Shown here in pieces: positions 27,719 through 62,469 of a DNA stretch of 64,000 nt. Location: assembly GCA_014905635.1 (NCBI GenBank), contig JABVCE010000032.1, positions 1 to 64,000 of the forward strand, in the 5' to 3' direction. How positions within the stretch are numbered: the stretch's first letter is position 1; the number at the start of each line of letters is the position of its first letter. This DNA comes from Scenedesmus sp. PABB004. Its lineage: Eukaryota. Both the position numbers and the translations under genes were made by a program. Below the pieces are notes generated by a model. The model saw only the letters and a program-made list of their open reading frames with translations, had not been told where the DNA came from and did no database searches.

Positions 27719-27772
<54 letters not shown>

Positions 27773-35200: not shown

Positions 35201-35244
35201 AAAAAAAGATAAAGATAAAGATAGTTACACCACAGGCTCGCGCC
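35201..35244 (-). mobile_element. 44-bp retro-type insertion with (TATCTT)n tail, 7-bp TSD acagctg
   Basis: TSD at 35194-35200 and 35245-35251. Absent at the paralogous site (~43717) in duplicate copy 2. The same core is present at 54871-54903. Confidence 0.85.
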
Positions 35245-36570: not shown

Positions 36571-36810
36571 ACCCACTCACATGCGAGGCGCCGCGTGCTG
36601 CGCCGCCGGCTGCGCCCGGGGCGGCGGCACGTGCGCCGGCCCCATAGACCGGCGCGCCTGGCAGCGACGTGCGCAATGCTGAACCCCTCCGTCTGGCGGC
36701 GCTCGGGGCACTTGGGGACGGGGAGTGCGTGCATTCATCCGGTGCCAGCCCACCAGGCGCGGCTGCAGCTGAGGAAGGAAGATAGCGCGGGGGCCCGCAG
36801 CCGCGGCCCT

Positions 36811-38214: not shown

Positions 38215-38636
38215 GGCGCGCGCTGCGTGCCGCGCGCTGTGTCCCTCGGGGCGGCGGCGCGTGCTGCGAGGCGCACCGCGCGCTGCGCGCTGGCGGCGCC
38301 CGGGGCAGCGGCACATGCTGTGAGGCGCTGCGCACTGCGCCGCCGGCGGCGCTCCAGGGCGCCGGCGCGCGCGGGCGGGGCCTGGCGGCAACCCTCGACT
38401 CATGTTCCGACCGTGGGCCGCGCTGCGGCGCCGTTCGCCGTGCGCTGAGCGCTGGGCCGCTTCGGGGCCGAGCCGGCCCACCCGCACGGCCACTGCGGCG
38501 CTGCGCCAACAGCCGCGGCATGCGCAGGCCCCGCACCACCGCCGGCCGGGCGCGAGCAGCGCGCCAGGGGCAGCCAGCCGGCGGCCCGCCGCCGCCCGGA
38601 GCAGCGCGCGTCGCGGCGCGCGTGCTGCCGCGATGT

Positions 38637-39219
38637 TGTTGTTGTTGTTACACGCAGGCTCAGTCGGGATTCCCGACTCGGGGCAGGGCAAGAACGAATG
38701 CGTTCTTGGGCGGCACGCTTGGTGCGCACGCGCCATGGGAAAACCGTCAGAAAACCACCCCCTTCACTGCTACAGCGCCGGGCACAGGCCGCAAGGCCCT
38801 AAGCCCCGGGGTCAGTCGCGCAGACGGCGCGCAGATCCCAGCGACGGTCGCTGCAGCAGCCACTAGCGCAGTTCGCGCGCCCCGGCTCTGGTGCTCACAC
38901 CCCGAGGTCGCCCCCGGTAATGGTCCCGCGCCCTTCAAGGGCGGCGCCAATGGTAACAGGATGCCGATGTACAGGCTGACGGCCAGAGGGGCCACCAACA
39001 TCCGAACGCAGTCGCCACAGCTCCGCAACATAGGTCGCTGCCGCCCGCGCCGTATCAGGGTGCGCAAGGCAGGGCCCAAGCAACCACTGCCGTGCGCGCT
39101 GCAGGGCGCCGCGTACTGCCACGCTGTCCGTGTCCGCCGCTGTGCCGGCCGAGTCCGCTGCCAAATCGCCAGCTGCCGCAGCCGCCGGGGCAGGCAACGC
39201 CGGCACGCCGCCTGCGCCC
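38637..39219 (-). mobile_element. Duplicate of non-LTR retroelement fragment within unit R copy 4 (38445-39385)
   Basis: Identical to 30113-30695; TSD cgatgt at 38631-38636 and 39220-39225. Confidence 0.8.
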
Positions 39220-40121
39220 CGATGTGGCTTGGCCGCCGCCGCGCGAGCGTAGCGGGCGACGAGCAAGGCCTGCTGCTGGAGGTGTCGATGCCGGAGCGGC
39301 GCTGCTGCCCGCCGCGCCGGCGGCGCGGCGGCGCTGCTGCTGGCATCCCGCTGCCCGCTGCCGCCCTACAACGATGTGCGCTGCGGCGCGCGCGGCGCGG
39401 GCGGCGCGGGCGGCGGGCGGCGGGCGGCGCGCACGGCGCGTGGGCGGCCTGTTTCCGAGCGACTGCTGCTCGCAGCAGGTGGCGCCGACGCAGCAGGTTG
39501 GCCTGGCGTTGTCAGAGTCATCTCGCCGCCCCGCGAGAATTCTCGGCGGCCGACGCCCGCTGCTCAGACCGGCACTCTGCGGGCTGAACGCTGCGCTCTG
39601 AGAGCCACAGCCACTCCGGCGTCACTGCATGGCTTTGCCAGGTAGAGGTGTGCGCGGCGGGGCCGCCGGCAGCGCAGTGGGGCGGCGGTCGGGGCGAGAA
39701 CTCTGTCTCATCGGCACGCCGCAAACATGCGTGCCCCGGTCGTGCCGAGCGCACGTCGCACCGCGCAGTTCCACAGTAGTATGCCTGTTCGCGCGTGGCG
39801 TGGCGTGTTGAACGCGCTCAGTACCCCCCCGACATCATCATCATAACACGTAGCTTCTTTTAGATCGTCTGAATGAAGTATTAGCCCCCCTCCCCGCGAC
39901 GGTCGAGTGCGGACAAGCCCCGTGCCCTTCCGCAGGCTGGCGCAGCCCCCCTCCCCCCGCAGCCCCCCTCCCCGCGCCCGCTCCCTCGAGTCAGCCACTC
40001 CCTCTAACACACATCGCGCAGACAGCGCCGCGCGGCATCAGCGCGCCCCCCCCCCTCCTCCCCCCCGGGGGCGCCCCTTCCCCCCCCTCCCGCCCTGCCG
40101 GCCCTCTCCGACGCCCAAGTG

Positions 40122-43100: not shown

Positions 43101-43611
43101 CTTTGCCTACACGCTGTATGAGCCGCTCTCCGGCGCAACCGAGCCCCAGCCCACGCTGTTGTCGTCCTTCTCTCCGTTTGGCGACACCGTGATGCCCGTG
43201 GCGCTCGCGGCGGGCTGGGTCGCCGGAGACGAGGGCGGCTTCGCACGCATCGTGGCCAGCCACCCCACGCAGAACCAAGTCAAGGTCCTGACGCTCGCGA
43301 GCTTGAGCCGCACGCAAGGCCACCCCGCCATCTACATCACGCCCTTGTCGGACTACTCGCTGGCCGCCGCGTACGTGGAAATGGCCAACTTCACAGTGCC
43401 GTTCGTCCCACCCGGCACGAGCGTGGCGGTGGCCACAGCCAGCCACGTCGGCGGTGCCAGCCTTGTCGTGAGCTCCGTCGGGGCCGACGTCGTCAAGCTC
43501 ACCGAGCTGGTGCGCCCGTCCCCCAACGCCACGTCCCTGGAGCCCGGGCCATTCCACGATGTGTGGGTCGCAAGCGGGGGTGCCGTTGTGCTCCAGGTGA
43601 GCGGGGCGTGA
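40122..43611 (+). CDS. Multicopper oxidase copy 2; apparent 1-nt frameshift at C-run 40881-40885
   Basis: Near-identical to 31599-35088, but C5 replaces C6 in 'tccattcccccggcatg', and there are two Ala-to-Ser changes. Could be a pseudogene or a homopolymer error. Confidence 0.8.
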
Positions 43612-44526
43612 CGACCCAAGCGCCGGAGCCGCGAGCCCGCGCCGAGGGCGGCGTGGTGAGTCACCAACGACGCGGGCTACCTCCTTTTGTCTGCAACACT
43701 TACGCCTTGTTTGATTACAGCTGTTCTTTTTGCTGTTTATAACGTTTTGAACTGCTACATATATCAACGGCTCGAGGGTGGGTGGCTTGGCGACTCCACG
43801 CGAGTGGGCTTGCGCTCGAGGGGGGCCGAGGCATTGCCCCTGCGGGGGTGTGGTGGCCGGTCAGGACGGGGGCACGCAGCGTGAGGTCGTGCGCTGCACG
43901 ACACGGCTGCACGACGAACGGGAGGCCTGTTATAACGGCCTGCCGTGGCCACGGCGGTGCTGTGCGCGGCGCAGCACGGTGTGGTGGGGCGGGCTGACCG
44001 GGCGGCATGGCGGGGCTGGTGTGGCTCTGGGCCTGCACTCTGGTGCGCGCCTCAGACCCGGGGAGGGGGGACTGATGGCATGCACAGGGACTGGTGTGTG
44101 CGGGGCTGCGCGTGCGCTGGCCGCGGCGCAGCCGCAGCGACACGCCCCATGCCAGCGCCGCCGGCGACGCCAACGGCGTCGGCCGTGAGCGCAGCATGTG
44201 GGAGGCTGCTTTTCCTGTTTCTGGTTGCACTGTTCTTGGGCTGACCTGACCTGCTGTCGGGGTGCTGACAGGGAGCGTGCCCGTCAGTAGCCGACCGGGC
44301 AACTCAACAACAACAACAACTCGACGAAGGGCTCGCCCTGCGTCAGCGGGTGCGTCGTACGTTTTCCTACGTTTTCAGAGACACAACATGTCCAAGAGCC
44401 TAACAAACGAAAGCTGCAAACAACGAAAGCTTTAACGACAACCGTGGCCCTCGCCGCCACCGCGCCCCGCGCCGGCGCCTGCAGCCGGCCTAGTTGTAAC
44501 GCCAATGACTTTGCACATCTGGAGCT

Positions 44527-45040
44527 GCTTCCGCAGCGGCTTTGAACGGGGGCGGCAGAGGGAGGAGGGCCAAGGGCCGCCACACGCGCAGCACCGGTGC
44601 TCACGCGCGCCACGCCTCGCCGTGGCAGGCCACCCTGCAGCTGCAGCTGCCCCCCCCCTGGACCGCCTCAACCGCCCCGCGCCGCCGCGCCTGCAGGAAA
44701 CCAGGCAGCGCGGTGCGGCACGGCCGCCGCGGGCGAGGCAAGCCGCGCGCCGGTGCTGCGCAGCAGCTGGCGCTTGAGGCGCAGCTCCACCGCCCCCACA
44801 CGCAGCCGTGCCAGGTGCCCAACGCGCTGCTCGTTCAGGCGTGCGGCCCCGTGGGCGGTGTGAGCGTGCTGGCGGCCAGCCACAACGGCCGCTGGCTCGC
44901 AGAGGCGGCTGGCGATGCTGTGGGGCGCTATCAGGTGCGCGTGCCGCCGAAGCAGTGCGGCGCCGGCGCGCTGCTGGCCTCGCACGCGCGGCTCCCCCCC
45001 CCCACACACACACACAAACACACCCACCCACATGCACCCA
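44527..45040 (+). pseudogene. Scrambled AHI1-like fragment (copy 2)
   Basis: Duplicate of 36055-36570. Confidence 0.85.
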
Positions 45041-45320
45041 CCCACTCACATGCGAGGCGCCGCGTGCTGCGCCGCCGGCTGCGCCCGGGGCGGCGGCACG
45101 TGCGCCGGCCCCATAGACCGGCGCGCCTGGCAGCGACGTGCGCAATGCTGAACCCCTCCGTCTGGCGGCGCTCGGGGCACTTGGGGACGGGGAGTGCGTG
45201 CATTCATCCGGTGCCAGCCCACCAGGCGCGGCTGCAGCTGAGGAAGGAAGATAGCGCGGGGGCCCGCAGCCGCGGCGGCAGCCGCCTCCCGCAGCAGCAG
45301 CAGCGGCGGCGGCGTGCGCG

Positions 45321-45992: not shown

Positions 45993-48314
45993 GGCGGCAG
46001 GGCCGCTGCCCGCGCGCACAGGGCCCGCGGCTGCGGAGGCAGCGCAGGGCGCAGCGGCGCCCCGCTCGCCGCGCCCGCACACGTACGAGTGCGCGCCGCA
46101 CCGCGCAGGACCCGCGCTTTGGCGAGATCATGTCTGTGGCTGAGGGCCTGGACAGCGAGCAGATCAAAAAGGCCATCCGCAAGAGCCGCGTCGTCTACAA
46201 CCGCGGCGGCGCCGACGAGGCCGCGGCACCCGAGCCGGGTGCGCAGCACGCAGCATGCGACGGGGGGGGGGGGGGGGGGGGCAGCGTGTAGCGCGTGCAG
46301 CGCGCGCCCTCCTCCCCCGCTGACCCCTGACCCCCCCCCCCCCCCCCGCCGCGGGGGCGTGGCGCGCACGCGGCGTGGCGGCGCGTCGGCGGCGGCGGGT
46401 TAGGCGTGCTGGCCAAGTACTCGCGCGAGCTCACGGCCGAGGCGGGCGAGGGGCGGCTGGACCCGGTGATTGGGCGGCACGACGAGATGCGGCGCCTCAT
46501 TGATGTTCTCTGCAGGCGCACCAAGAACAGGCGCGCGGGGGGGGGGGGGGGGGAGGGAGGAGGGGGGGGAGGGGAGGGAGGAGGGGGCAGGGCGGCAGCG
46601 AGCAGCCAGCGGCTGGCCGCCCTGTGAGCCCCCCTCCTCCGCCCGCCGCGGCCGCGGTCGCCGCCGCCGCCGCCGCCGCGCAGCGCGGTGCTGCTGGGCG
46701 AGCCGGGCGTGGGCAAGACGGCCATCGTGCAGGGCCTGGCGCAGCGCCTCGCCGAGGGCGACGTGCCGGAGGTGCTGCGCGGCGCGCGGCTGTACGCGCT
46801 GGAGCTGGGGCTGCTCATGGCGGGTGCGGTCGCGGCGGCGCGCGGCGCCGGGGGGGGGGGGGGGGTGAGGAACCCCCAGGGTTGAGTCGGGGAGGGAGGG
46901 GGGGGGCAGTTGACGCGACGGCCGCCCCTGGCCCTCCCTATCCCTGCCGCCGCCTGCCGCCGCCTCGCCCCGACCTCTGCCGCCGGGCGCACCCAGGCGC
47001 GACGTTCCCGGGCGAGTTTGAGGAGCGCCTGCGCGGCGTGCTGTCCGAGCTGGTCGGCGCGGGGCGGGGCGCGCTGCTGTTCATCGACGACATCCACGCA
47101 ATCACCGGGCCCAACGCGCAGCAGGGCGGCGGCGTGAACGACGCGAGCGTGCTGCTCAAGCCCCTGCTCGCGCGGTGCGGCGCGCGACACGGCCGCGCGC
47201 GGGCGCGGCCGCCCTCCCTCGCCTCCCCCCCCCCCTCCCCCCCCCCCCCCCCGCACACACGCCGCCGCCCCGCCGCGCCCGCACGAGCTCGCCGCCGCCC
47301 CGCCCCGCCCCGCCGCGCACTCACGCGCCCGCTGCCGCCCCGCGCCGCGCGCAGCGGCGAGGTGCGCGTGCTGGGGTGCACGAGCGCCGACAAGTACCGC
47401 AAGTTTATTGAGAAGGACCCCGGCCTGGAGCGCCGCTTCCAGACCGTGGCCGTCGGCGCGCCGAGCGTGGGCGAGACGATGTCGATTCTGCGCGGCCTGC
47501 GGCACAAGTGCGCGGGGGGGGGGGGGGGGCACGCGCCGTGCCACGCTGCGACCTGCGCTCCCCGCCCCGCGCCGCGCCGCGCCGCGCCGCCGCGCGCGCG
47601 CGCCCGACCGCCGCCGGCGCGCGCGCGCGCCCTCGCACGCAGGTACGAGGCGCACCACGGCGTGCGCATCGCCGACAGCGCGCTCGCCGCGGCGGCGCAG
47701 CTGAGCGACCGCTACCTGCCCGACCGGCAGCTGCCTGACAAGGCGATCGACCTCATGGACGAGGCGGCGGCAAAGGTGCGTGCACGCGTGGGTGTGGTGG
47801 CGGTGGTGGGGGGTGTGGGCGGGTGGGTGGGTGGGGGAGGGAGGGAGGGAGGGAGGGGGCGAGGGAGGCTGGGGCGAGGAGCGCGGGGCGTGCGAACGTG
47901 CGCGCATGCGTGCGTGGGAGGGAGGGGCGGGGCTTTGTTGATACGGGGGGGGGGGGGGCTGCACACCCACGCTCTGACAAGCTGGCAGCCTCCCCTCACA
48001 CACGTACACGACCTGTTCCCCCCCCCCCCCACACACACACCGCCCTGCAGGTGAAGACCGACCTGGTGCTTAAGCCCGAGGCCCTGGACAGGGCAGAGCG
48101 GCGCATGCGGTGCGGCGCCACGCAGGGCCGCCTGCCGCCCCGCCCCGCCCCGCCGTGCCACGCCGCGCGCTCAGCGCGGCCGCCGCGCGCTGCCACCGCC
48201 CTCGCAGGCAGCTGCAGACGGAGCGCAAGCTGCTGCAGCGCACGGCGGAGCTGGACGCAGGCGCCGCGGCCGACCTGGAGGGTGCGTCGGGGGCGACTGC
48301 AGCGCGCGCGCGCG

Positions 48315-48356
<42 letters not shown>

Positions 48357-51300
48357 CCCTGCCGGGCCGAGCGCCCGCCCGCCCGGCAGCCCCGCCGCGC
48401 CACTCGCGCCCACACGGCCGCTGCCGGCCGGCCGCCCCGCCCCGCCCGCCGCGCCGCGCGCCCGCCCCGCGCGCGCGCGCGGCAGCCCTGGAGGAGGAGC
48501 TTGCGCGGCTGACCGAGAGCACCGCCGTGCTGGCGGCGACGTGCGAGGCGGAGGCGCAGGAGAGTGAGCGCACGCAGCGCCTGCAGGACGACCTGGACCG
48601 CCTTGACGCTGGTGGGTGTGGGGGTGTGAGGGTGTGAGGGTGTGTGTGTGGGGTGCGTGGGTGTGAGGGGGTGAGGGGGTGAGGGGGTGAGGGTGAGGGG
48701 GGGGGGGGGTGAGGGTGAGGGGGTGAGGGGGGGGGGGGGGGGGGGGCTGCGCTGCCCCGGCGGGGCGCGCCGCGCCGCGCGCGCCGCCCGCGCACCCCGC
48801 CCGACCCCCTGCCCCCCTGCCCCCCCCCCCGCGCCCCCGTGCGGCAGAGATTGAGGCGGCCGAGGAGGCGGGCGACGCGGCGCAGGCGGAGCAGCTGCGC
48901 AAGGCGCGGCGCAGCGAGCTCGTGCGCAAGCTGCGCCAGCTGCAGCGCCGCCACGCGCAGGGCGGCGGCAAGGCCGGCAAGGGCGGCGCCGCGTCGCGCA
49001 GCGGCAGCGGCAGCGGCAAGCTCAGCCGGGCTGAGGTGGTCGAACCCGACGTCGCGCGCATCATCAGCGCCTGGACCGGTGCGCGCGCGCGCCTGCGCGC
49101 GTGGCGTGCGCGCGCGCGCTGCGTGTGTGTGTGTGCGCTCGCCGCCGCGCAGCCCCACGCCCCGCCGCCGCCGCCGCGCCCCGCCCCGCGCGCGCCGGCC
49201 CCATCCACACCCGACCCCCCCCCCCTCTGCGCGCCGCCTGGCCGCCCCGCAGGCATCCCGCTGACCAAGCTGGTGGAGAGCGAGGCGGCGCGGCTGCTGA
49301 CCCTGGGCGACGAGCTGCATCGCCGCATCATCGGCCAGGATGAGGCGGTCGACGCGGTCGCGGAGGCCATCCAGCGCAGCAGGCGCGCGCGCACGGGGCC
49401 TGCGCGCGCGCGCGGGGCGCCCGGATGCCGCGTTGCAGCGGATGCACACGCCCCCCCCCTCTCCCCCTCTCTCCCCTCCCTCCTCCCCCCCCCCCTCCTC
49501 CCCTCCTCCCCCCCCTCCTCCCCCCTTCCCCTCCCCCCGCGCGTGAAGCCCGGGGCCCCCTGCCGCCCCTAAAACCGTGCCTGCCCCCCTCAACCCTCAC
49601 TCCCTAAACCCTGCTTACCCCCCTCACCCCTCGCCTCCTAAACCCCTCCCCCCAGGGCGGGCATGAAGGACCCCAACGGCCCCATCGCCAGCTTCCTCTT
49701 CCTGGGCCCCACCGGCGTGGGCAAGACGGAGCTCGCCAAGGCGCTGGCGTCAAACCTGTTCAACACGGAGGAGGCCATGGTGCGCGGAGGGTGTGGGTGT
49801 GGGTGTGTGTGGTGATGGTGGTGGTGGGGGTGTGGGGGGGGGGAGGGCTGGAGCCAGGCGGTTGTCTGGCTGGGCCTCTGCCGGGCGCCGCTCGAGCGCC
49901 GTCGACCCCTCCTCCTGTCCTCCTCCCCCCCCCCCCCAAACACACACACACAAAACACACACAAAACACCCCCCCCCCCCCCCCCCCCCCCTGCCCACCC
50001 ACACCCACACCCACACCCACACCCCCCCCCCCCCCCCCCAGGTGCGGCTGGACATGAGCGAGTACATGGAGAAGCACGCAGTGGCAAAGCTCATCGGCGC
50101 GCCGCCCGGCTACGTGGGCTACGACGAGGGCGGCCAGCTCACAGAGGCGGTGCGCCCTTTGGGGCCGGGGGGGGGGGTCGTGCGGGCGTGGGGCGGGGAG
50201 CGAAGGGGGGAGGGACGGGGGAGGGCTGGGGAGGCTGGCCGTGCGAAGGCGGGGGCGGAGGCGACGCCGCGCGGCGCCGACCCCCGTCCCCCCCCCTTCC
50301 GCCCCCCTCACCCCGCCGCCGCCCCGCGCGCGGCCAGGTGCGGCGCCGGCCGTACAGCGTGGTGCTGTTTGACGAGGTCGAGAAGGCCCACGTGGACGTG
50401 TTCAACCTGCTGCTGCAGCTCCTCGACGACGGCCGCGTCACAGACAGCCAGGCGCGCCGGCCGCGGCGCGCGCGCGCGGGCGCTGGCGTGTGTGCCTGTG
50501 TGTGCTTGTGTGTGCGTGCGTGTGGGGCGGCGCGACCCCCTCACCACACCCATGCCCACACCCACACCACCCGCCCCACCCCCCCCCCCCCCCCCCCAAA
50601 CCCCCCAGGGACGCGTGGTGAGCTTCAAGCACGCCATCGTCATCCTCACCAGCAACCTGGGCAGCGCGGAGATCTTCAACCACGCCTACCGCGCGCGCGA
50701 GCAGGGGCGCGACGCAGACGCAGAGGGTGACCGGCCACCGCCGCCGCCGCCGCGGCGGGCCCGCGTGCCTGACCTTGTCCCGCGCCCCGCCTCCCTCGCT
50801 CCCTCCCCTCCTCTCCCCCCCCCCTCCTCACACACCCACACGCGCACACACGCTAAACCTCCCCCCCCCCCCCGGCCCCCCCCCCCCCCCCCGCCCCCGC
50901 CCGCCAGACGTGCGCGAGCTGGTCATGGCCAAGGTGCGCGCCCACTTCCAGCCCGAGTTCCTCAACCGCCTCGACGAGTTCATACTCTTTGCGCCCCTCA
51001 GCAGCACGCAGATCGAGGCGATCGTCGGCCTGCGCGCGCGCGGCGTCGCGGCGCGCGTCGCGGAGAAGCGCATGACCCTGCGCCTCGCGGACAGCGCGAC
51101 GCGGTGCGTGGGGGTGTGTGGGGTGGGGGAGGGCTGCCCGCCGCGCCCCGCTGCCGTGCCTGCTGCACGCCTGCCGCTGTGCCTGCTGCGCGCCGCACCT
51201 CCCTCCCCCCCCCCTCCCCTTCTGCCTCTTCCCCCCCCCCCACACACACACACAACACTCACCCGCCCCCCCACCCCCCAGGCACCTCGCGGGCGTGGGG

Positions 51301-52210
51301 TACGACCCCGTGTACGGCGCGCGGCCCGTCAAGCGCGCGATCCAGCGCGAGCTCGAGACGCCCCTCGCGCAGGCGCTGCTGCGCGGCCAGTTCCAGGCGC
51401 GCGCCGCGCCGCGCACGCGAGCGCCCGACCGGCGGGCGCGCAGCGCGCGCCGCCACACGCGGCGCCGCGGCGGCTCGCTGGCTGCAACTCTCACGGCAAC
51501 CCTCCTCCCCTCTCCTCCCCCCCCCCCACACACACACACATACACCACAGGAGTTTGACACCATCGTGGTCGAGGCGCACCCCTCGGGCGAGGGCCTCGC
51601 CTTTGCCCGCATCCCCGCGCCGCCCGACCCGCTGGCAGAGTCGGACAGCGACGGCGAGGCCGCGGGCGGTCGCGCCGCGCAGCAGCAGCAGCAGCAGGGC
51701 GTGGCCATCCCCGTGGTCATCCCCGGCACGGCCAGGGGCGGCAGCGCCGGCGGCCGCAGCAGAGCGGCCGCCGACGCCCCCGCCGCGGGCCGGCCGCCGG
51801 CGGGCGCCGCGGCCAACGGCGTCAAGGGGGGCCACAGGTTTGACCCGCTGGCGCAGCGCAAGAAGCAGGGCGCCAGCGGCGGCCGCAGTGGCACGACAGG
51901 CAGCGGCAACAGCAGCGGCGGCGGCGGCAGCGGCAGCAGCAGCGGCGCGCGGGCCTCGTCCGAGGCGATCGGCGCGGACGCGCCGCCAGCGCTGGAGGGC
52001 GATGACGGCGCGCCGGCGGCCCCCACGCGCAGCGGCGGTGGCGGCGCGCCGCAGCGCGACGGCAGCAGCGGCAGCGTGGCGGCGCTGGTGGAGGGCATGG
52101 ACGCGGCGGTGGCTGAGCGGCTCGTGGACGGCGGCGGCCCGCTGCCCGCCTTCCTGCGGACGCCGGTGGTGCGCAACGACCAGGACAGCCTGCCGACGCA
52201 GTCGGTGTGA
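45321..52210 (+). CDS. clpB: ClpB/Hsp100 family AAA+ chaperone, divergent, many introns
   Basis: [54 protein letters not shown], coiled-coil middle region, [66 protein letters not shown] and [16 protein letters not shown]. The start codon is uncertain. Confidence 0.92.
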
Positions 52211-53378: not shown

Positions 53379-54741
53379 TCATTTCAAGCCCATCCGCATT
53401 GAGGCTGTCGCAATGCCCAGTCTCAACAAGCCAGGCAGCTTGTCTTTTTCTTCTACAACGCCGTAGTACGTTGTTATGTGTGCCGCGTACAGCAGAATCT
53501 GCAGCTCTTTCACCTCGCCGCGCCTGCCAAAGACGATGGAGGAGGCGCCGTCACGCGCGAACAGCGAGTTGTAAGCGATTGTGCCGTGCTCTGACACGAC
53601 GACCGTCGCGCTGCGCACGGTCTCGATGGTGGCTTTGATCGTGAGCTGTGACGGGTCGATGCACGTGACCGGGACTTCTGGTGGCCCCAGCGCCTCTGCA
53701 GCACGTTTCACGTCCTCACAAAGCTGTGGCCACTGCGGTGCGGTGAACGCAGGGACCTGCAGTCGGCAACGCGGGGGGGGGGGGGGGTCAGGCCGCCCCG
53801 CGGGAGGGCAGCGTGCTCTTGCACGTGCAGCGTCGCACCTTCACGTTCACGACGATTGCATGCCGCCGCAGCGGTGACTCCGCGAGCCCCAAGCGCCGCA
53901 CCACACCCGTGCTCAGGTCTCGCAGGGTAGTCGCGCGCTGCAGGTCGACGCTGCGCAGGCTGAAGGCACTCGACTGCCCGACGACGAGCCTGTCCACACA
54001 CACTGAGGCGTTGGCCCACCCCGGGTCTGATGCGACGTCGATGGACGGCCGACCCAGCAAGAGCGGGTCCCACACACGGTGATTCTCCGCGCACCGCTCG
54101 TGCCGCCGCCGGCCGGTCATAGGGTCCATGTTTTCTATTGACCAGAAACCGTTCCACGCGCGGCAGCCATCATACAAGAGCTGCACGTCTGCGGCGCCGA
54201 CGCCGAACAGCCTTGCGGCGGCGAGGACAGGCAGCAGGACGTCAATCAACAGGTGCCCAAAGTTGTCGCTGTAGGTGTTTGTGGCATAGAAGAAGGTGGC
54301 ATTGTCCAGAAACGTGTGGGCGGCAGGCCGCCGCGCGTGCTCGACCGTCGGGCGCCAGGGCTTGTTGCCGGCGGCCGGGTGATCCAGGTAGCCAAGGTAC
54401 ACAAAGGGTTGCATGCTGCTGATGCGCTGCCTCTCCGGCGTGCTGGGATCCTCAAAAAAGGTGACGCCAGAGCTCCCATTGAAGCACACATTGCGGAGCA
54501 CGCACACGCGGAGCTCGGGCGACGTCGCCGGGGGGAATTTGTAAAGGACCTTCTGCTGCGACCAGCCGTCAAAGCTCTGCTGGCCGCCTATGCAATGGAA
54601 TGCACTGTAGGGCGCGTGTCGCGAGCTTGGCGTGGCCGCCGGGAGGACCTGAGTGGTGGAGGCGTGCTGGGGGGTGCCGCCGCGCCATGATAAAAGGGCC
54701 AGCGCGGGGATCATGAGCACAAGAGCCACAATTGCGCGCAT
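53379..54741 (-). CDS. Glycosyltransferase family 61-like (DUF563) type II membrane protein; intron 53757-53838
   Basis: N-terminal signal anchor MRAIVALVLMIPALALLSW. Motifs VCVLRNVCF, NFGHLLIDVLLPV, VCVDRLVVG and LTIKATIETVRSATVVVSEHGTIAYNSLFARDGASSI. Confidence 0.75.
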
Positions 54742-54829
54742 CGCAGCTCGCAGCTGGGGTCGCTGCCCGGCGCTGACGCCAGTCGACCCAACGCAGCCTG
54801 TGTGCTGCTAGCCCGCACGCTGTGCCGGA

Positions 54830-55360
54830 GGGAGTTGAAGATGCTCAAACTCCAGGCCGGCGCGCAGCGATAGATAAAGATAAAGATAAAGATAGTTACA
54901 CCACAGCGAGCTGCCGACGCACCCGGTGTGCCCGAAGAGCGCAGAGTTGGGAGGCGGGAAGGTGTCCAGCATGGCGGCGGTGTCGGGTCGATCCGAGCAA
55001 GCCGAGCGACAGCTGGGCCCCCACCGAGCTTGAGCGGCGGCTGGACATAACACGCTGCTACAGCCCGCGACGGTCGCGGCGCGACCTCGAGCGCACAGGC
55101 CGAGCTGGCGCTTCAGCGTCCACTCACGCAGCTGCACTGAAACGCTGCAGCGCAGCGGTCGCCCGCGCCGTCAGCCGCGCGCCACGGTCCCTCGGCCACC
55201 ACGCGGCCCGCCGCGCGAGCCAGGGTCGCCGCCGCGTCACGCACCCGTGCCGCAGCGCCTGCTGTCCCTGCGCCCGCCCTGCACAGCTGGAGCAGCAGCT
55301 GCTCGGTCGGACGCGCAGCAGGAGCGCGGCGCATCGGCGGTCGTCGCGCCGCGAGCAGCG
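54830..55360. promoter_or_regulatory. Diverged duplicate of 58370-58850 (5' end of SDR/TIM gene plus divergent intergenic region), now between GT61 and FAD oxidoreductase
   Basis: Long matching tracts, e.g. gctgccgacgcacccggtgtgcccgaagagcgcagagttgggaggcgggaagg and ctggacataacacgctgctacagccc. The duplication is seen directly; a promoter role is inferred. Confidence 0.7.
54871..54903 (-). mobile_element. 33-bp retro-type insertion with (TATCTT)n tail, 6-bp TSD cagcga
   Basis: TSD at 54865-54870 and 54904-54909. The empty site is at ~58410 (gcagcgagctgccg). Same core as 35201-35244. Confidence 0.85.
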
Positions 55361-55372: not shown

Positions 55373-56660
55373 ATGCGCATTGCGGTGATTGGCGGCGGCT
55401 GGTACGGTGAGCCGAGGCAGCGGTGGCGTGCCCGCCAGCAGTTTGCGGGGGCTTGCGGCCCGCGCCAGACCACGCACCGGCCGTTCCCGCCGCCGCAGGC
55501 TGCCACTTGGCGGCGGAGCTCATCCGCCTTGGGGAGGACGTCACGGTCCTGGAGAAGGGGCCGTGTCTGTTCGGTGGTTCGTCAGGCTTAAACCAGTTCC
55601 GGCTCCACCTGGGCTTCCACTACCCGCGCTCGAGCACGACGCGGCACCAGATCGTGGCCGCGCACGACCGGTTCGTCAAAAAATACCCAAACCTCTTCTT
55701 TCCTGTGACGACAAACGTGTACTGCATCTCCGCTGGCGACAGCATGCTCGACTTTCAGACCTACAAGACCATCATGCAGGTGTGAGCAAGGCGGGCGCCG
55801 CTGAGTGGTGCAGCAACTCGCCCTCTGCTGATGTGCTCACTCACTGCGTGCGCACCCGCCGCTCGCTGCAGCACGACTGCGCGGGTGTGGCGTTCGAGGA
55901 GGTGGACCCCGGCGCCATCGGCCTGTCCAACGTCGAGGGCGCGCTCGTGTGCCGCGAGGGCGCGCTGCTCGCGGACGAGCCCAAGCGCTTCTTCACGAGC
56001 CTCCTCCACAGCCGCGTGCGGTTTGGCTGCGAGGTCCGCAGCGTGCGCACGCTGCCGAGCAACGGCACCGACGCCGCCGGCGTGGACGTCGACGGCGAAC
56101 AGTTTGACTGGGCCGTCGATTGCACGTACGGACAGCTCGCAAACCAGCGCTGCGGGCTGTACTACGAGGCCTGCCTGACGTTAGTTTACAGGAGGCGGCA
56201 GAAGAACACTCACCACCTGAACCACGCCTTCACAGTCATGGACGGCCCCTTCACCAGCCTCTTCCCGTTTTTCGCTGATTACGCCGACGCCGTCGGCGAC
56301 ATCGGCCGGCTCCACACGCTCACGCACGTCACGCACACGCACATGGCGCGGTTCAAAACGTTTGCCGAGGCCCGCGCGTTTGCGGCTGCCTTCACCGACG
56401 CCGACGCCGAGCGGGCGCGGCCGCAGTTTGAGGCCGGCATTACGCACTACCTGCCCTCGTTCCCCCAGGATTACGAGTACCACTCCTACTTTGTGAGCTT
56501 CAAGACCAAGACGGCGGGTGGCGCGGACGCGCGGGAGACGGTGTGCGAGACGAGCGGCCGCGTCATCTCGGTCATGAGCGGCAAGGTCAACACCATCTTC
56601 CTGGCGGAGGACTACGTGCTCAACGCGATGGGCCTGCGCCCCGCGCCCACCCAGGCATGA
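55373..56660 (+). CDS. FAD-dependent oxidoreductase (DAO-like superfamily); introns 55407-55498 and 55780-55871
   Basis: MRIAVIGGGWYG|CHLA...VTVLEK...GSSGLNQFRLHLGFHYPRS, FDWAVDCTY, FTVMDGPFTSLFP, TLTHVTHT and VMSGKVNTIF. No signal peptide. Confidence 0.85.
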
Positions 56661-56774
56661 CTGGCAAGCGGGGACGAGCCGCGCCGAGCTGTCGGGGCTC
56701 AGCCCGTGCCCCAGCAGTTGAGAGATGGAGCGCGGCGGCAAACAACCGCACCGTCAGCGGCAGGGGACTTACAC

Positions 56775-58478
56775 TCACACTGCATAGCTCGACGCAAAGA
56801 CTGCCAGGGAGGCCGCCAGCTCCGGCAGCGACGAGCACACCATCTCCACAGACAGCAGCTTGTCGTAGCCAGCAGCGTCCAGCGCGGCCGCAAACCGTGC
56901 GTGGTCGGAGCGAGCCGGGGCGTCGGGCTTGGGCGCCGACAGCGGCGCCAGGAAGGGCTCCGAGACGTGCACGTGGCCGAGGACGTCGACGCAGTCCGCG
57001 ACCGCGGCGCCCGCGTCCTCGCCGGCGAGCGCCATGCACGCCGCGTCCAGGTGCACCCTCAGGCCGGGGTGCGCCACTCGCCGCACCAGCGCGGCGGCGT
57101 GCCGCGAGGTGGTGACAAAGTTGCAGCCGTACTCTGCGGCGTTGGGCTCGAGGCACAGCACGCAGCCCCGCTCCTGCGCATACGCCGCCAGCCCCGCAAA
57201 CGTGCCCGCAAAAATGTCGTCCGCCTCGGCAGCGCTCATGCCCTCCGGCACGCGCCGGTTCTTGGGCGCCCCAAACACGATCGGCACAGGTGCTCCCGGC
57301 CGCACCGCCGGTCGTAGCGCGCCCACGAGGTCGACGATCAGCTGCACGTGCCGCACCAGGCTGGCGCGCGCCTCGGGGCTGCCGAAGAGCACAAGGTCGG
57401 GCTTGTTGTAGAGAATGGCTTGCACGGACGAGATCTGCAGCCGCGCAGCCGCCAGCCTGCCGACCAGCCCCGCCACGAGCGCCTCGAGCTGCTGCCCGCC
57501 CTGCGCGTGCGCGGCCTCGAGCTCCTCCCAGGAAAAGAAGCGGGTCGGCGCGAGCTCGACGAGGCGCACGCCGGCCAGCTGCAGCGCGCCCGCCGCGCCG
57601 CTGTCGTCGGCCTCCTTCCACGCGATGCACGACACCGTGGTGCGGCGCGCGAGCCTGTGACGGGCGAGGAAGGCCCGGAACGCGGCCTCCACCGACGCCG
57701 CGCTCTGGCTGTACGCGCCCGCGCTGCTGCTCCCCAGCGCCCGCGCGTGCTTGGTGCACAGGTCGTACGCCGCGGCCGGGCCCGCGTGTCCCACCGGCCC
57801 GTCCGGCAGGAGGCCCGCGTCCGCCACGAGGCCCACCAGGCGCGGCGTCGCGACGGGCTCGGGGAAGAGGTTCACCTCGCGCAGCCCCAGCGCCAGCACG
57901 CGCTGCAGGTTGCGTGCGAGCGCCGAGGTGTCGTACCACTGGAACGACGTGTTGGTGTTGATGGCGGCCACGTTGTTGGCGTGCAGCAAGTCAAACACGT
58001 AGTTCTTCTTCAGGTGCAGCCCGAACAGCGCCGGCAGGCGCACGACGATGGCCTTGTCGCCGTAGCGGTCGCGCACGAAGCGCTCAAACAGGGCGCGGTG
58101 CCGGCCGTACGCGTGCAGCGCGTCGCCGTCGGCCGCCGCGCCGCCGCCGGGCGCGCCGTCCTCGTCGCGCCGGTCGTCGGTCGGGTGGTAGACGTCGATG
58201 GTCGAGATCAGCACAAAGCGCTCGCACTCGACGGAGCGCAGCACGTCCTGCAGCGACTGCACCGTGGCGAGGTCGCGCGCGGGCTCCTTGTTGGCCAGCC
58301 ACTTGGCCGCCGGCAGCGCCGCAAACACGACCAGGTCGAACGCCCGGCCCCGCGCATCGTCCACGTTCTGGGAGTTGAAGGTGTGCTCAAACTCCAGGCC
58401 GGCGGCTCGCAGCGAGCTGCCGACGCACCCGGTGTGCCCGAAGAGCGCAGAGTTGGGAGGCGGGAAGGCGTCCAGCAT
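56775..58478 (-). CDS. Intronless two-domain fusion: NAD(P)-binding epimerase/dehydratase (extended SDR-like) + xylose-isomerase-like TIM barrel (sugar epimerase/isomerase), 567 aa
   Basis: N-half: ALFGHTGCVG, AAKWLAN, FVLISTIDVY, YGRHR, VRLPALFG..LKKN. C-half: VELAPT, VFGAPKNR, LCLEPNAAEYGCNF, VHLD, HVHVSEP, LSVEM (E/D/H/E metal ligands). TGTAA lies just after the stop. Confidence 0.88.
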   Translation of the reverse strand: MLDAFPPPNSALFGHTGCVGSSLRAAGLEFEHTFNSQNVDDARGRAFDLVVFAALPAAKWLANKEPARDLATVQSLQDVLRSVECERFVLISTIDVYHPTDDRRDEDGAPGGGAAADGDALHAYGRHRALFERFVRDRYGDKAIVVRLPALFGLHLKKNYVFDLLHANNVAAINTNTSFQWYDTSALARNLQRVLALGLREVNLFPEPVATPRLVGLVADAGLLPDGPVGHAGPAAAYDLCTKHARALGSSSAGAYSQSAASVEAAFRAFLARHRLARRTTVSCIAWKEADDSGAAGALQLAGVRLVELAPTRFFSWEELEAAHAQGGQQLEALVAGLVGRLAAARLQISSVQAILYNKPDLVLFGSPEARASLVRHVQLIVDLVGALRPAVRPGAPVPIVFGAPKNRRVPEGMSAAEADDIFAGTFAGLAAYAQERGCVLCLEPNAAEYGCNFVTTSRHAAALVRRVAHPGLRVHLDAACMALAGEDAGAAVADCVDVLGHVHVSEPFLAPLSAPKPDAPARSDHARFAAALDAAGYDKLLSVEMVCSSLPELAASLAVFASSYAV

Positions 58479-58898
58479 GGCGGCGGTGTCGGGTCGATCC
58501 GAGCAAGCCGAGCGACAGCTGGGCCGCCACCCTTGAGCGGCGGCGGCTGGACATAACACGCTGCTACAGCCCTGCGACGTGGACGCCGCAGCAGTCTCTG
58601 CAGCATGCACGGACGCAGCTGCACTGAACCGCTTGCAGCACAGCCGTCATCCACGCCGCTCAGCCGCGCCGGCCTCGGGCACCACGCGGGCGCCGCAGTG
58701 TCACACACCGTGCCGCAGCGCCTGCTGCCCCTGCTGCCGCCCTACCCCACAGCTGGAGCAGCTGTTGCTCGCTGCCGCGCATCAGGAGCATTGTTCCTGC
58801 AGGGCCGCAGAGCGGCGCGTGCGCGGCGTCCGCCGCGAGCGCCGCGCGGCCTGCAAGCCGCAGCGCGACGGGCTGATGTCGACGCGCAGCACGGGCTG

Positions 58899-59873
58899 AT
58901 GTCGACGATTGCTCGAGGCGTGGGGGCTTGGGCAGTGGAGTTCTCCAGCGCAGTGCTCATGATATTTTTCAACAAGGTGCTGCTCTCAAACATGAGCTTT
59001 CGGTTCCCGGTCTCATTGACGGCGATGCACTTTGCGTGGACCGCGGTCGCCACGGCGGCGATGCAGCACTGTGGCGCCGCCGCTGGTCAGGGCGTGGTCG
59101 CTTTACCCCCGCTGCACGCCCTGTTGCTATTCGCCCTGCTCTCTACCACAGCCATCATCTTAAGCAATGCCTCACTCCTGCTTAATTCGGTTGCCTTCTA
59201 TCAGATAATGAAGCTCCCCACGCTCCCGTTTGTTGCGGCCGTGGAGTGGGTCGCGGGGACCAAGCAGTACGCTTGGCAGCACGCAGCGCTGTACGCGACC
59301 ATCCTGGCTGGCGTGTGGCTGACGATTGCGGGCGAGGTGCGCGCTAGCTGGACGGGCACCGCCGTGGCGATGGCATCCTTCATGTCTGCTGGCACTCACC
59401 AGTTTTTTTGCGGGCGACTGCAAGCGGCGTACTCGATGACGCCCAGCCGCCTGTTGGCGTTCATCTCGCCCATCAAAGCCATTGTGCTGTTTGCCTCGGG
59501 CCCCTTCCTTGACAAAGCGCTGTTCGGAGCCTGGCTGGGCGCGTACGCCTGGACGGGCGCGGCCGCGTCGCTGGTCGCGGGGACTTGCCTTCTCGCTGTG
59601 GTCTTGAACCTCGCGCAGTACACCGTCATCAGCCTGCTGGGCGCGGGCCCCTACCAGGCGTTCAGCCAGCTCAAGACGGCAGCGGTCGTCGTGCTCGGCT
59701 CTCTGGTGTTCCAGGGCGACGTGCGGGCGCAGCAGCTTGCAGGTACGGCGCTTGCGATCGCTGGCGTGCTGTCCCTGGCGCGCTTTGAGCGCCACCTGGA
59801 GCGTTTAAAGGAAACGGCGTTCATGGAGCTGCCCTCAAGCACGGAAGCCCAGCCCCCGCCACCAGCAAAGTAA
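58899..59873 (+). CDS. Nucleotide-sugar transporter (TPT/SLC35E family, plant UXT/URGT-like), intronless
   Basis: SAVLMIFFNKVLL...FRFPVSLTAMHF, LSNASLLLNSVAFYQIMKL and YQAFSQLKT, with about 10 hydrophobic segments. Confidence 0.88.
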   Translation: MSTIARGVGAWAVEFSSAVLMIFFNKVLLSNMSFRFPVSLTAMHFAWTAVATAAMQHCGAAAGQGVVALPPLHALLLFALLSTTAIILSNASLLLNSVAFYQIMKLPTLPFVAAVEWVAGTKQYAWQHAALYATILAGVWLTIAGEVRASWTGTAVAMASFMSAGTHQFFCGRLQAAYSMTPSRLLAFISPIKAIVLFASGPFLDKALFGAWLGAYAWTGAAASLVAGTCLLAVVLNLAQYTVISLLGAGPYQAFSQLKTAAVVVLGSLVFQGDVRAQQLAGTALAIAGVLSLARFERHLERLKETAFMELPSSTEAQPPPPAK

Positions 59874-61168: not shown

Positions 61169-61305
61169 GAGGAATGGGAAACAATGATGCGCAGCGCCGG
61201 CAGCGCGCTTGGACAATCTAACAAGGCTGTAGCGCGCACACGCTATTTGGTGGCCGAAGCACACCGCTTTGCCCTGCGGCAGCCCGCCCCTGCATCACAC
61301 CGACG

Positions 61306-62469
61306 ATGAGGCCCCCCCTGCTGCCGCCAGTTCTTGCAGCCCTGGTCGTGACCGGGGCGCTGCTGCTGCTGAGCGAGCTGCGCGCGGCCCCCCCATGCCG
61401 CGGCGCTGCCCAGCACTCCTCGCTCGGCAGCGGTCCCGGTGCCTCCGCCGCCGTGTCAACGGCCTCCCTGCACGGCAGCAGCTTGGGGCTGCTGACCATG
61501 CGGTCGTTGGAGCGGCCGTTCCTGCTGGTCACCGACGGCAGCACCACGGGCGCCCCGCCCGCGCCGCCGCGGGCCGATGGCGATGAGGCGCAGCAGGCGG
61601 TGCTCACGCAGCTTGAACTCGCCCGGCGCTGTGCCGAGGACGCGGACACGGTCGTGGTGGACGTGGGCGCGTTCCTGGGCGACTTCGGGCTGGCCGCGGC
61701 GGCGGCGGGGTGCCGCGTGTACATCTTCGAGGTGCGGCAGCTCGAGGCAGAGCTTGAGCCTGCCGCGCGTGGCGCCAGGCCCGCGCTTCAGCGCCCCGCG
61801 GCGCCTCCCCATGTGCCGCAGGTTCAGCCCCGCCAAGCGGCACTCATCCAGGCGTCGATCAACGTCAACGGCTTCGGCGAGCGCGTGACCCTGGTCAACA
61901 AGGCCGTCACCAACGCGTCAAACGCGCGCTTGACGTTTTCGGCCGCCGGGGGTCAGACGGCCAAGGCGGGCGGCGGCGGCGGCACAATAACTGTCGACAG
62001 CGTTGCCCTCGACGACCTCTTCCCCGCGCCTGCAAGAATATTCTTCCTGAAAATTGACACGGAAGGTTGGAGGCACGGCCGCACGCCGCGCCGGTGTTGG
62101 CACTGTTCTGACGCCGCCGCTGGCTCCCTCCCGCGCGCAGGGTTTGAGCTTGACGTCTTTGCAGGCGCGGCACGGCTCTTTCAGCAGCGGCGTGTCGACA
62201 ACGTGGTCTTTGAGTACACGGCGTTCTGGACCGACCGCGCTGACCAGCAGGCGCTTCTGCCCTTTGTAGAAGCTTTCCAGCCGAGAGCGCTGTACGCGCT
62301 CGACCGCACGGGGCCAACGGTGTACGGCCCGCTGGGTCCCCAGGACGTGCGGGGTTTCTGGAAGGCGCACAACGACCGGCACCTGCAAACTGACGTGTAC
62401 GCAACGTTCAGCGATGCGGACAGCCGGAAAGTGCGCGCGACGCCTTACACCCAGAGCGTAAACGCTTGA
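61306..62469 (+). CDS. FkbM-family SAM methyltransferase with signal anchor; probable introns 61732-61821 and 62066-62140
   Basis: VVVDVGAFLGDFGL, VYIFE|VQP, SINVNGF, SVALDDLF, FLKIDTE|GFELDVFAGA and VVFEY. Confidence 0.88.
   Translation: MRPPLLPPVLAALVVTGALLLLSELRAAPPCRGAAQHSSLGSGPGASAAVSTASLHGSSLGLLTMRSLERPFLLVTDGSTTGAPPAPPRADGDEAQQAVLTQLELARRCAEDADTVVVDVGAFLGDFGLAAAAAGCRVYIFEVRQLEAELEPAARGARPALQRPAAPPHVPQVQPRQAALIQASINVNGFGERVTLVNKAVTNASNARLTFSAAGGQTAKAGGGGGTITVDSVALDDLFPAPARIFFLKIDTEGWRHGRTPRRCWHCSDAAAGSLPRAGFELDVFAGAARLFQQRRVDNVVFEYTAFWTDRADQQALLPFVEAFQPRALYALDRTGPTVYGPLGPQDVRGFWKAHNDRHLQTDVYATFSDADSRKVRATPYTQSVNA

Follow-up and report, generated by a model that had tools for sequence, protein, structure and literature searches.

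The eukaryotic form of a widespread flavoprotein, dehydrogenase/reductase and TIM-barrel module with a probable role in sugar remodelling in Scenedesmus sp. PABB004

As described in PMC11543891, the YcjQ, YcjR and YcjS proteins of E. coli interconvert D-gulosides and D-glucosides via 3-keto intermediates: a dehydrogenase forms a keto-glycoside, a triosephosphate isomerase (TIM) barrel enzyme epimerises the adjoining carbon, and a second dehydrogenase reduces the ketone. A trio of domains for which similar chemistry can be proposed is encoded in the first 64,000 nucleotides of contig JABVCE010000032.1 of the alga Scenedesmus sp. PABB004 (the stretch analysed here, hereafter the window), where the gene of a flavin adenine dinucleotide (FAD)-dependent oxidoreductase (the FAD gene) lies next to a gene that joins a short-chain dehydrogenase/reductase (SDR) to a xylose-isomerase-like TIM barrel (the fused gene). 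The redox partners of YcjR, which its PDB title (6wn6) calls a 3-keto-D-glucoside 4-epimerase, are NAD-dependent sugar dehydrogenases, and the Ycj system is catabolic and sits with an ATP-binding cassette (ABC) importer, whereas the module in the window has a DAO-fold flavoprotein and an extended SDR, has glycosyltransferases as neighbours, and has a TIM half only 15% identical to YcjR. DprE1 and DprE2 of the Corynebacterineae, a VAO/PCMH-fold flavoprotein and a classical SDR that operate without a TIM-barrel component, resemble the module, as proposed here, in that they share out an epimerisation between an FAD-dependent oxidant and an SDR that reduces with NAD(P)H, and in that the bacterial loci of both systems hold polyprenyl-phosphate glycosyltransferases and GtrA-like proteins. 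They differ from it in that the module has a DAO/GlpD-fold oxidase, an extended RmlD-type SDR and a third catalytic domain that is always present. The analogy with DprE1/DprE2 drawn in the original prediction for this DNA holds for the reaction logic and fails for the fold of the flavoprotein.

The superfamily of each domain is known, and there are precedents for the reaction logic; it is the three-part combination that lacks a specific curated name. No family specific to a DAO-fold flavoprotein combined with a YxxxR extended SDR and a ketose-epimerase-like barrel was found in NCBIfam or PHROGs; no NCBIfam model comes near its cut-off for the FAD, SDR or TIM part, and representatives of the three core families have no PHROGs match at E 1e-3. 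Bacterial members are named 'hypothetical protein', 'TIM barrel protein' and 'FAD-dependent oxidoreductase' by the Prokaryotic Genome Annotation Pipeline, and no description of the module was found in a search of open-access papers and bioRxiv. With a probability of roughly 0.55, we propose that the module is the eukaryotic form of a widespread three-enzyme sugar-remodelling pathway, of old bacterial or viral entry, that would turn an activated sugar into its epimer in three steps. Its probable role is to make, from an activated sugar, a rarer sugar that is used in surface glycans. The instance in the window is one member of a large family, and it is this family with its product, rather than the single locus, that deserves attention.

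The fused gene is, as predicted, a single intronless frame on the minus strand (58478..56778, stop codon 56775-56777) that encodes 567 amino acids and joins a Rossmann domain to a xylose-isomerase-like barrel. Also as predicted, it is convergent, tail-to-tail (58478-56775), with a plus-strand FAD gene (55373-56660) whose product bears the motif NQFRLHLGFHYPRS; the start codons of the FAD and fused genes are at 55373 and 58478, respectively (Table 1). The FAD gene product, 367 amino acids, is spliced from 55373-55406, 55499-55779 and 55872-56657, with TGA as the next codon. It aligns colinearly with P0019, P0020, P0021 and P0022, to which it is 70, 59, 57 and 51% identical; its third exon has nine homologues and is 66-67% identical to P0018 and P0019. 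A candidate third intron (56180-56235) was rejected because removal of its 56 nucleotides would shift the reading frame and because the alignment to the homologues is uninterrupted there. The description of the pair as 'partly intronised' thus applies to the FAD gene and not to the fused gene.

Residue conservation in the fused protein was read from an alignment of 22 two-domain family members. In the SDR half, both the GHTGCVG motif (GxxGxxG, residues 14-20) and the atypical YGRHR (residues 124-128) noted in the original prediction are present, and G14, G17, V19, G20, S92, T93, Y124, G125 and R128 are invariant. The lysine of the SDR triad is replaced by Arg128 in all 22 members, none of which has the YxxxK pattern; since YxxxR is invariant, YGRHR is a trait of the family and not a sign of decay in this genome. 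An AlphaFold2 model of the whole protein (mean predicted local distance difference test score, pLDDT, 91.4; predicted template modelling score 0.89) places residues 1-279 on extended-SDR enzymes of nucleoside diphosphate (NDP)-sugars, with Z 23.2 to MoeE5 and 22.3 to RmlD (3sc6), and Z 22-23 over 249-259 residues to MoeE5, UDP-GlcNAc 4-epimerase and RmlD. As modelled, the SDR half is a Rossmann fold with GxxGxxG and a C-terminal substrate subdomain, of the extended-SDR type. It shares with RmlD and the NDP-sugar 4-epimerases the short extended-SDR form, GxxGxxG, Ser/Thr and Tyr, and differs from them in having arginine for the catalytic lysine. The Pfam Epimerase family (PF01370) scores 19.6 against a cut-off of 20.9 on the fused protein, slightly too low, whereas several homologues exceed the cut-off; the RmlD model TIGR01214 scores 23.3 against a cut-off of 224 on a bacterial SDR member.

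For the TIM half, the score to PF01261 (xylose-isomerase-like TIM barrel) is 51.8 bits, above the cut-off of 31.1 (E 1.2e-13). V401, G403, P405 and R408 of its GSPKNR motif, E444, Y450 and D478 are invariant in the same alignment, in which H502 and E545 are at least 90% conserved and K406 and N407 of GSPKNR are not among the conserved positions. By sequence alignment E444, D478, H502 and E545 correspond to the LE, HLD, H.H.SE and ..E motifs of the ketose 3-epimerase 7dz5, positions that we take to be the metal and catalytic positions of these enzymes. In the model, residues 276-565 superpose on the D-tagatose-3-epimerase-related protein 2zvr (Z 26.6, root-mean-square deviation (rmsd) 2.3, 248 residues) and also on other ketose 3-epimerases and on YcjR (6wn6; Z 24.9, rmsd 2.8, 253 residues). 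The TIM half is, on the model, a (beta/alpha)8 barrel of the PF01261 superfamily with a predicted Glu-Asp-His-Glu metal site, so that the metal-dependent barrel of the original prediction is supported, all four proposed ligands being kept. The ketose 3-epimerases (of D-tagatose, D-psicose/allulose and L-ribulose) are its best relatives in sequence and fold, and their E-D-H-E positions align with it; it differs from them in its identity of 15-20%, in the family's own motifs GSPKNR and LEPN..YGC, and in the SDR fused or adjacent to it. The scores to the NCBIfam models PsicseEpim (NF051856, 22.4 bits) and IolO (NF041099, 31.2 bits), against cut-offs of 300, show that it is a member of neither family.

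In an alignment of 22 FAD-family sequences, residues N47, Q48, R50, H52, G54, H56, Y57 and R59 of the exon 2 motif are conserved; the family has its own motifs, NQxRLHxGxHYxR and TxMDGPxxSxxP. The exon 2 fragment of the window taken alone scores 20.9 against the PF01266 cut-off of 27.9; the domain is present in full-length FAD homologues and reaches 87.5 bits in the member at locus L158. The structure of the family was taken from P0020, which is 59% identical to the window protein and was modelled with AlphaFold2 from the 22-sequence alignment (mean pLDDT 92.0). The best match of this model is GlpD (Z 28.3, rmsd 3.0, 325 of 365 residues), and other matches are glycerophosphate oxidase, glycine and sarcosine oxidases, opine dehydrogenase and L-2-hydroxyglutarate dehydrogenase. 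Judged from this homologue, the FAD protein is a DAO-family flavoprotein with the two-domain GR2-type fold and an N-terminal GxGxxG. The VAO/PCMH-type FAD domain of DprE1 was not found in it, its Pfam matches being DAO and NAD_binding_8 and its structural alignment GlpD-type. With GlpD and glycerol-3-phosphate oxidase it shares GxGxxG and the ..RLH.G.HY.. FAD-contact motif, and its identity to GlpD and the DAO flavoenzymes is 10-14%. GlpD oxidises a secondary alcohol, a hydroxyl beside a phosphate ester, at the membrane.

The fused protein has 3505 matches with E<=1e-3 among 1.84 billion representative proteins, 403 of them with E<=1e-30; 73 of the best 150 matches are two-domain proteins, 41 are single-domain and 30 have at least 680 amino acids. 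Long homologues were examined with Pfam in a sample of 32 (these 30 together with P0015 and P0028): 17 are triple fusions that include an FAD domain (DAO-type in 16, NAD_binding_8 only in one), in four domain orders (SDR-TIM-FAD, TIM-FAD-SDR, FAD-SDR-TIM and TIM-SDR-FAD), six carry glycosyltransferase domains in the same chain, one carries a canonical NDP-sugar dehydratase/epimerase, and eight have no additional domain. Of 341 candidate places in viral contigs, 228 proved to hold the module, as did no fewer than 496 of 588 in bacterial and archaeal genomes, in a set with one genome for each of 185,579 prokaryote species. In the best 80 viral and best 80 bacterial loci, tblastn with six FAD-family proteins located an FAD gene within the retrieved flanking DNA in 70 and 68, respectively, 138 of the 160 in all, and several of the loci with no FAD match are short contigs; since the three domains are adjacent or fused in these 138 loci, their association in the window is not due to chance. 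When neighbours in the 160 loci were clustered from 2013 greedy open reading frame calls, which sometimes took antisense frames in GC-rich bacterial loci so that the counts are minima, the FAD family was found in 127 loci (68 viral, 59 bacterial), the SDR alone in 102 (51 viral, 51 bacterial), the TIM barrel alone in 101 (48 viral, 53 bacterial) and the fused SDR-TIM protein in 23 (22 viral, one bacterial). Single frames that contain all three domains occur in a Sulfurovaceae metagenome-assembled genome (MAG; L092:4692-7181, 830 amino acids) and in a viral contig (L057:7038-9386, 783 amino acids). A metagenome scan with the fused protein gave one weak locus (L161, 35% identity), and matches were found to 1 of 50,697 GenBank phage genome records and 12 of 72,556 plasmids.

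In bacteria, SDR and TIM are usually separate genes, typically in a cassette FAD-GT2a-SDR-TIM-GT2b of variable order, in which the two GT2 glycosyltransferases are the commonest neighbours (GT2a in 44 and GT2b in 36 of the 80 bacterial loci). GT2a resembles PgfS and ArnC, and GT2b resembles dolichyl-phosphate hexose transferase, AglJ and PpgS, with scores far below the curated cut-offs in both cases. GtrA-type and DUF2142 proteins, GMD, RmlB/RmlD, Wzt and export genes are also found near bacterial modules. The Azospirillum sp. TSA2s plasmid p2 has an operon (hypothetical - TIM barrel - GT2 - FAD oxidoreductase - glycosyltransferase) with two GMD genes, methyltransferases, and GT4, GT9, GT61 and GT2 genes on its flanks, and its products, about 41% identical in two pieces to the window protein, have generic names only. 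Thauera, Rhodopila, Humitalea and others have a second arrangement, FAD-SDR-TIM, from which the GT2 pair is missing; beside it, in 9 of the 80 bacterial loci (L128, L134, L136, L141, L150 and others), recurs a family of about 520-940 amino acids with no Pfam or NCBIfam match. The claim of the original prediction that the three domains occur as separate adjacent genes in bacterial polysaccharide loci is mostly correct, with GT2, GtrA, GMD, RmlD and export genes nearby; bacterial homologues were not found to lie outside glycan loci, nor eukaryotic homologues to be widespread and vertically inherited.

In 29 of the 80 viral loci the module adjoins a phage portal gene, in the order portal - 226-amino-acid protein - SDR - TIM - FAD, usually with three glycosyltransferase-like genes downstream. 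These loci (within L019-L078; e.g. L028:5200-13800) are phage contigs of 45-51% GC with the module directly after terminase and portal, and their full order is portal - 226-amino-acid protein (phrog_24776) - SDR - TIM - FAD - protein of about 231 amino acids - GT4-like - DXD transferase - DUF4422. The 226- and approximately 231-amino-acid families, which recur with the module in phages, may be further parts of the pathway. The fused form is found in 22 of the 80 viral loci, with a GC content of 18-53% (18-37% in 19 of them), many of which bear the names of giant-virus MAGs; in the AT-rich contigs of giant viruses it is the prevailing form. A fused homologue of 512 amino acids is also present in a cultured giant virus, Fadolivirus FV1/VV64 (A0A7D3V5Z3; Foldseek E 4.2e-42, TM score 0.75/0.82); it has the same two-domain architecture as the window protein, 28% identity to it, and only a generic name ('Xylose isomerase').

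The modelled folds and the conserved catalytic residues fit the reading, already offered in the original prediction, of oxidation followed by isomerisation or epimerisation and then reduction. In the proposed pathway the DAO/GlpD-fold flavoprotein would turn a secondary hydroxyl on the sugar into a ketone and pass the electrons to an acceptor; the metal-dependent TIM barrel would remove and return a proton on the carbon adjoining the ketone via an enediolate, either inverting that centre or moving the carbonyl, as in ketose 3-epimerases and YcjR; and the RmlD-like SDR domain would reduce the ketone with NAD(P)H. The carbons concerned would be C2/C3 or C3/C4, and with a separate oxidant and reductant the conversion would be irreversible, by the logic of DprE1/DprE2. 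Structural relatives of the flavoprotein include oxidisers of secondary alcohols (GlpD, glycerophosphate oxidase, L-2-hydroxyglutarate dehydrogenase), the nearest TIM relatives invert the carbon adjoining a ketone, and the nearest SDR relatives reduce or epimerise keto-sugar nucleotides; a functional link between the three domains is supported by their conserved adjacency and their natural triple fusions. An N-terminal targeting extension is seen in neither the FAD protein nor the fused protein, which would place both in the cytosol; the product would enter the secretory pathway via the neighbouring SLC35E3-like transporter and there serve the membrane-anchored putative glycosyltransferases and the FkbM-type methyltransferase encoded nearby. 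The substrate in this organism is probably a nucleotide sugar, a choice favoured by the extended-type SDR fold, the SLC35-type transporter as neighbour, and the lack of a polyprenyl-phosphate GT2 partner in the window; none was seen there, and none recurs beside the module in viral loci.

The gene of this transporter is divergent from the fused gene and shares with it a promoter of about 400 bp; its homologues carry the name 'solute carrier family 35 member E3'. On scaffold27 of a EukProt entry, homologues of the fused gene (g5999, P0008, 55% identity) and of the transporter gene (g6000, P0183, 52% identity) are numbered consecutively, which indicates that the pairing is conserved in a second eukaryote. 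The promoter region is part of a direct repeat whose other copy lies directly upstream of the FAD gene (Table 1); the copies are 98-100% identical over about 160 bp and about 80% identical beyond, and the left copy includes a truncated pseudo-copy of approximately the first 35 codons of the fused gene (54808-54975, minus strand), broken by an (ATAAAG)n-like microsatellite. The left repeat is a duplicate of the fused/transporter promoter placed upstream of the FAD gene, which suggests that the FAD, fused and transporter genes are co-regulated via the duplicated promoter.

The fused protein has eight close relatives at 51-60% identity, all of them fused, of which those named are from Hyaloraphidium curvatum, Raphidocelis subcapitata and one EukProt entry; the FAD protein has nine matches, H. 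curvatum among them. That the fusion took place in this genome, as the original prediction supposed, is contradicted by these eight relatives, by the 73 two-domain proteins among the best 150 matches and by the 22 viral loci with a fused form; the pair would have been already fused on entry into the ancestor, or have fused early. Trees of the three domains were built with IQ-TREE in quick mode (LG+G4) with SH-aLRT (Shimodaira-Hasegawa-like approximate likelihood-ratio test) support only, and are unrooted; locus proteins were thinned at 60-62% identity (FAD 127 to 77, SDR 102 to 58, TIM 101 to 63, fused 23 to 18), the partial proteins P0018, P0023 and P0024 were excluded, and six of the many two-domain proteins without a known source were included. 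In the FAD tree, for which the first 11 residues (exon 1) of the window row are wrong, the eukaryotic clade (support 99) lies apart from the main bacterial clade, in a group (98) that is an unresolved fork with a viral clade, a Thauera/Acetobacteraceae-type subclade and the pair P0026/L024. In both the SDR tree and the TIM tree the eukaryotic clade (support 97 and 100, respectively) lies on the bacterial side, beside other fused proteins of unnamed source and apart from a viral clade (support 90 and 95, respectively). Constraining the eukaryotes and the fused proteins of giant viruses to group together in the TIM alignment costs 51.9 log-likelihood units and is not rejected by the approximately unbiased (AU) test (p-AU 0.071), the group having been chosen after inspection of the tree.

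The GC content at third codon positions (GC3) is 0.89 in the FAD gene and 0.93 in the fused gene, in a window of 60-81% GC (mean 72%). The host-like GC3, the two introns and the conserved transporter pairing indicate long residence, so that any transfer must be old, and the patchy distribution in eukaryotes together with the nesting among prokaryotic and viral sequences favours horizontal acquisition. Sequence comparison thus favours acquisition of the gene pair long ago, by an ancestor of the lineage, from a bacterial or viral source, the trees placing the eukaryotic clade differently for FAD and for SDR and TIM. The horizontal acquisition of the original prediction is supported by the few eukaryotic copies in one nested clade; the GC3 and the two introns speak for an old pair fully adapted to the host and not for a recently captured operon.

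Several observations weigh against the proposed pathway. Close relatives with a solved structure were not found, the only PDB sequence matches being to the TIM half with E 2e-5 or weaker. The lysine of the SDR triad is arginine throughout the family, so that reductase activity is only assumed. The DAO fold includes amine oxidases, so that an amino sugar might instead be oxidatively deaminated in the first step; the TIM superfamily includes dehydratases, eliminases and hydratases, with IolE and AtHYD matching at Z 22. Most bacterial loci have a polyprenyl-phosphate-type GT2, and sometimes GtrA, as neighbours of the module, with which a lipid-linked substrate fits equally well. The FAD and fused genes of H. 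curvatum are unlinked, on contigs of 28,112 and 706,498 bases.

The last but one of these points leads to a different reading, in which a lipid-linked sugar (dolichyl- or polyprenyl-phosphate) is the substrate of these three steps and the module is a true functional analogue of DprE1/DprE2 in decaprenyl-phospho-ribose 2'-epimerisation. It draws on the predominance of GT2a and GT2b among bacterial neighbours, their resemblance to ArnC/PgfS and to dolichyl-phosphate hexose transferase/AglJ/PpgS, the GtrA-type and DUF2142 membrane proteins of some loci, and the GlpD-like fold of a flavoprotein whose best structural match oxidises the hydroxyl beside a phosphate ester at the membrane. We consider it a serious but less probable alternative: the SDR fold is of the extended NDP-sugar type, the phage, giant-virus and eukaryotic loci have other glycosyltransferases instead of polyprenyl-phosphate GT2 partners, the conserved eukaryotic neighbour is a transporter of the nucleotide-sugar type, and GT2a itself is compatible with a nucleotide sugar, the ArnC-type enzyme of the Arn pathway acting after modification of the UDP-sugar. 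The E-D-H-E metal site serves dehydratase and eliminase reactions too in the xylose-isomerase-like superfamily, and if the barrel were such an enzyme, oxidation, beta-elimination of water and reduction would yield a deoxy or rearranged sugar; this is unlikely given that the top matches in both sequence and fold are ketose 3-epimerases and YcjR, by a difference in Z that is small and not decisive.

Catabolism is a further explanation, the module serving the use of free glycosides, inositols or ketoses as carbon source, in the manner of YcjQRS/Iol and unrelated to glycan synthesis. Those TIM relatives that are nearest among the characterised ones (ketose epimerases, YcjR, IolO) do have catabolic roles, but the neighbours are consistently glycosyltransferases and genes of polysaccharide export or synthesis, six of the 32 long homologues are fused directly to glycosyltransferase domains, the module is present in phage and giant-virus genomes, and no sugar kinase, ABC importer or repressor recurs among the 30 largest neighbour clusters or in a second set of clusters scanned, all of which makes a catabolic role very improbable. 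That the pair stems from contaminating bacterial or viral DNA, or is a dead insertion inactive in this organism, is suggested by the prokaryote-like distribution of the family and nothing further; two spliceosomal-type introns, intact frames with conserved catalytic residues, a GC3 in keeping with the window, flanks of multi-exon eukaryotic genes and the record of an identical protein on a 330,915-base contig make it a negligible prospect.

The 417-amino-acid product of a neighbouring gene (Table 1), which has no Pfam match, aligns with a 241-amino-acid DxD family that occurs mainly in viruses and is encoded near the module in seven viral loci (L005, L049, L062, L063, L065, L068 and L077; hhalign probability 90.8%, E 1.2e-6, 220 columns), and adjoining the fused gene in L005; the motifs D.D..P, W..DQ, RIDR..W and D.H.LRP are common to both. 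An Atlas structure search with a model of the 417-amino-acid protein returned mainly viral clusters (TM score 0.86 by target) and weak GT-A-like matches. The protein is a candidate for a new glycosyltransferase family common to phages, giant viruses and this eukaryote. A search of the window with 28 neighbour clusters (including v226, v231, c22, c27, GT2a and GT2b) gave matches only to c34, which hit this 417-amino-acid protein, and to c45, which hit the fused gene itself. On the other side of the module, a 317-amino-acid protein has no Pfam match (E up to 1) and no NCBIfam match; assignment to GT61, on a weak Atlas lead of 0.87, was dropped after BLASTP against an Azospirillum GT61 gave E 1.6.

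Table 1. The module and its neighbours in the window, with positions in window coordinates
Feature	Position	Strand	Remarks
317-aa protein, family unassigned	53788..54741	-	N-terminal hydrophobic stretch
Direct repeat of about 400 bp, left copy	54904..55325		directly upstream of the FAD gene
FAD gene, exon 1	55373..55406	+	MRIAVIGGGWYG, GxGxxG dinucleotide-binding motif; spliced frame without stop, colinear with P0019-P0022
FAD gene, intron 1	55407..55498	+	92 nt, GT..AG; homologues continuous over the junction
FAD gene, exon 2	55499..55779	+	holds NQFRLHLGFHYPRS; PF01266 20.9 bits and PF13450 18.7 bits, both below cut-off for the fragment
FAD gene, intron 2	55780..55871	+	92 nt, GT..AG
FAD gene, exon 3	55872..56660	+	262 codons and TGA; part of the substrate domain; conserved TxMDGPxxSLxP and GK motifs
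Intergenic spacer	56661..56774		114 bp separating the convergent stop codons
Fused gene, TIM-barrel half	56775..57644	-	residues 279-567 and stop; proposed metal ligands E444, D478, H502, E545
Fused gene, extended-SDR (RmlD-like) half	57645..58478	-	residues 1-278; GHTGCVG, S92-T93, Y124-G-R-H-R128
Direct repeat of about 400 bp, right copy	58410..58790		initial codons of the fused gene and the divergent promoter common to the transporter gene
SLC35E3-like (TPT family) sugar transporter gene	58605..59873	+	divergent from the fused gene; PF03151 53 bits; probable start ATG 58899
Putative GT-A-like glycosyltransferase, 417 aa	60011..61264	-	N-terminal hydrophobic stretch, DxD motif
FkbM-type methyltransferase domain, open frame only	61222..62466	+	PF05050 36.1 bits

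Elsewhere the window contains ordinary multi-exon eukaryotic genes, for ClpB/Hsp104-type AAA fragments, a multicopper oxidase, WD40 repeats and a diacylglycerol kinase. Near the module, intron-split fragments of a ClpB/Hsp104-type AAA+ chaperone (AAA_lid_9, AAA_2), a eukaryotic housekeeping gene, occupy 46504-52207 on the plus strand. A tandem duplication of about 8.5 kb (28284-36807 and 36811-45276; 97-100% identity in 9 of 9 sampled blocks) doubles the multicopper-oxidase gene and a PUA/SAM-methyltransferase gene, and could be recent or an artefact of assembly. Between 16001 and 30000 the GC content is 76-81.5% in 2-kb windows and long Ala/Arg-rich open frames occur on both strands, Pfam matches being limited to a WD40 frame (22736-24208), a PUA_3 frame (27467-28414) and a SAM-methyltransferase frame (28009-29103).

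Beyond the proposed pathway in this alga, we tentatively suggest, at somewhat less than even odds, that the trio is an unrecognised irreversible epimerisation machine of bacteria, tailed phages, giant viruses and a few algae and fungi, making a rare hexose or pentose donor outside the known NDP-sugar pathways, and that in this alga it forms, with the SLC35E3-type transporter, the virus-related DxD transferase and the FkbM methyltransferase, a glycan cluster of foreign origin. If the proposed chemistry is true, the module would be a widespread route to an activated sugar, and would account for the blocks of genes annotated 'hypothetical / TIM barrel / FAD oxidoreductase' that recur in the polysaccharide loci of bacteria and the glycosylation loci of phages and giant viruses. 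It would also reveal the role of an SDR with arginine instead of the catalytic lysine, and would be an example of a glycan cluster derived from prokaryotes or viruses and retained in a eukaryote.

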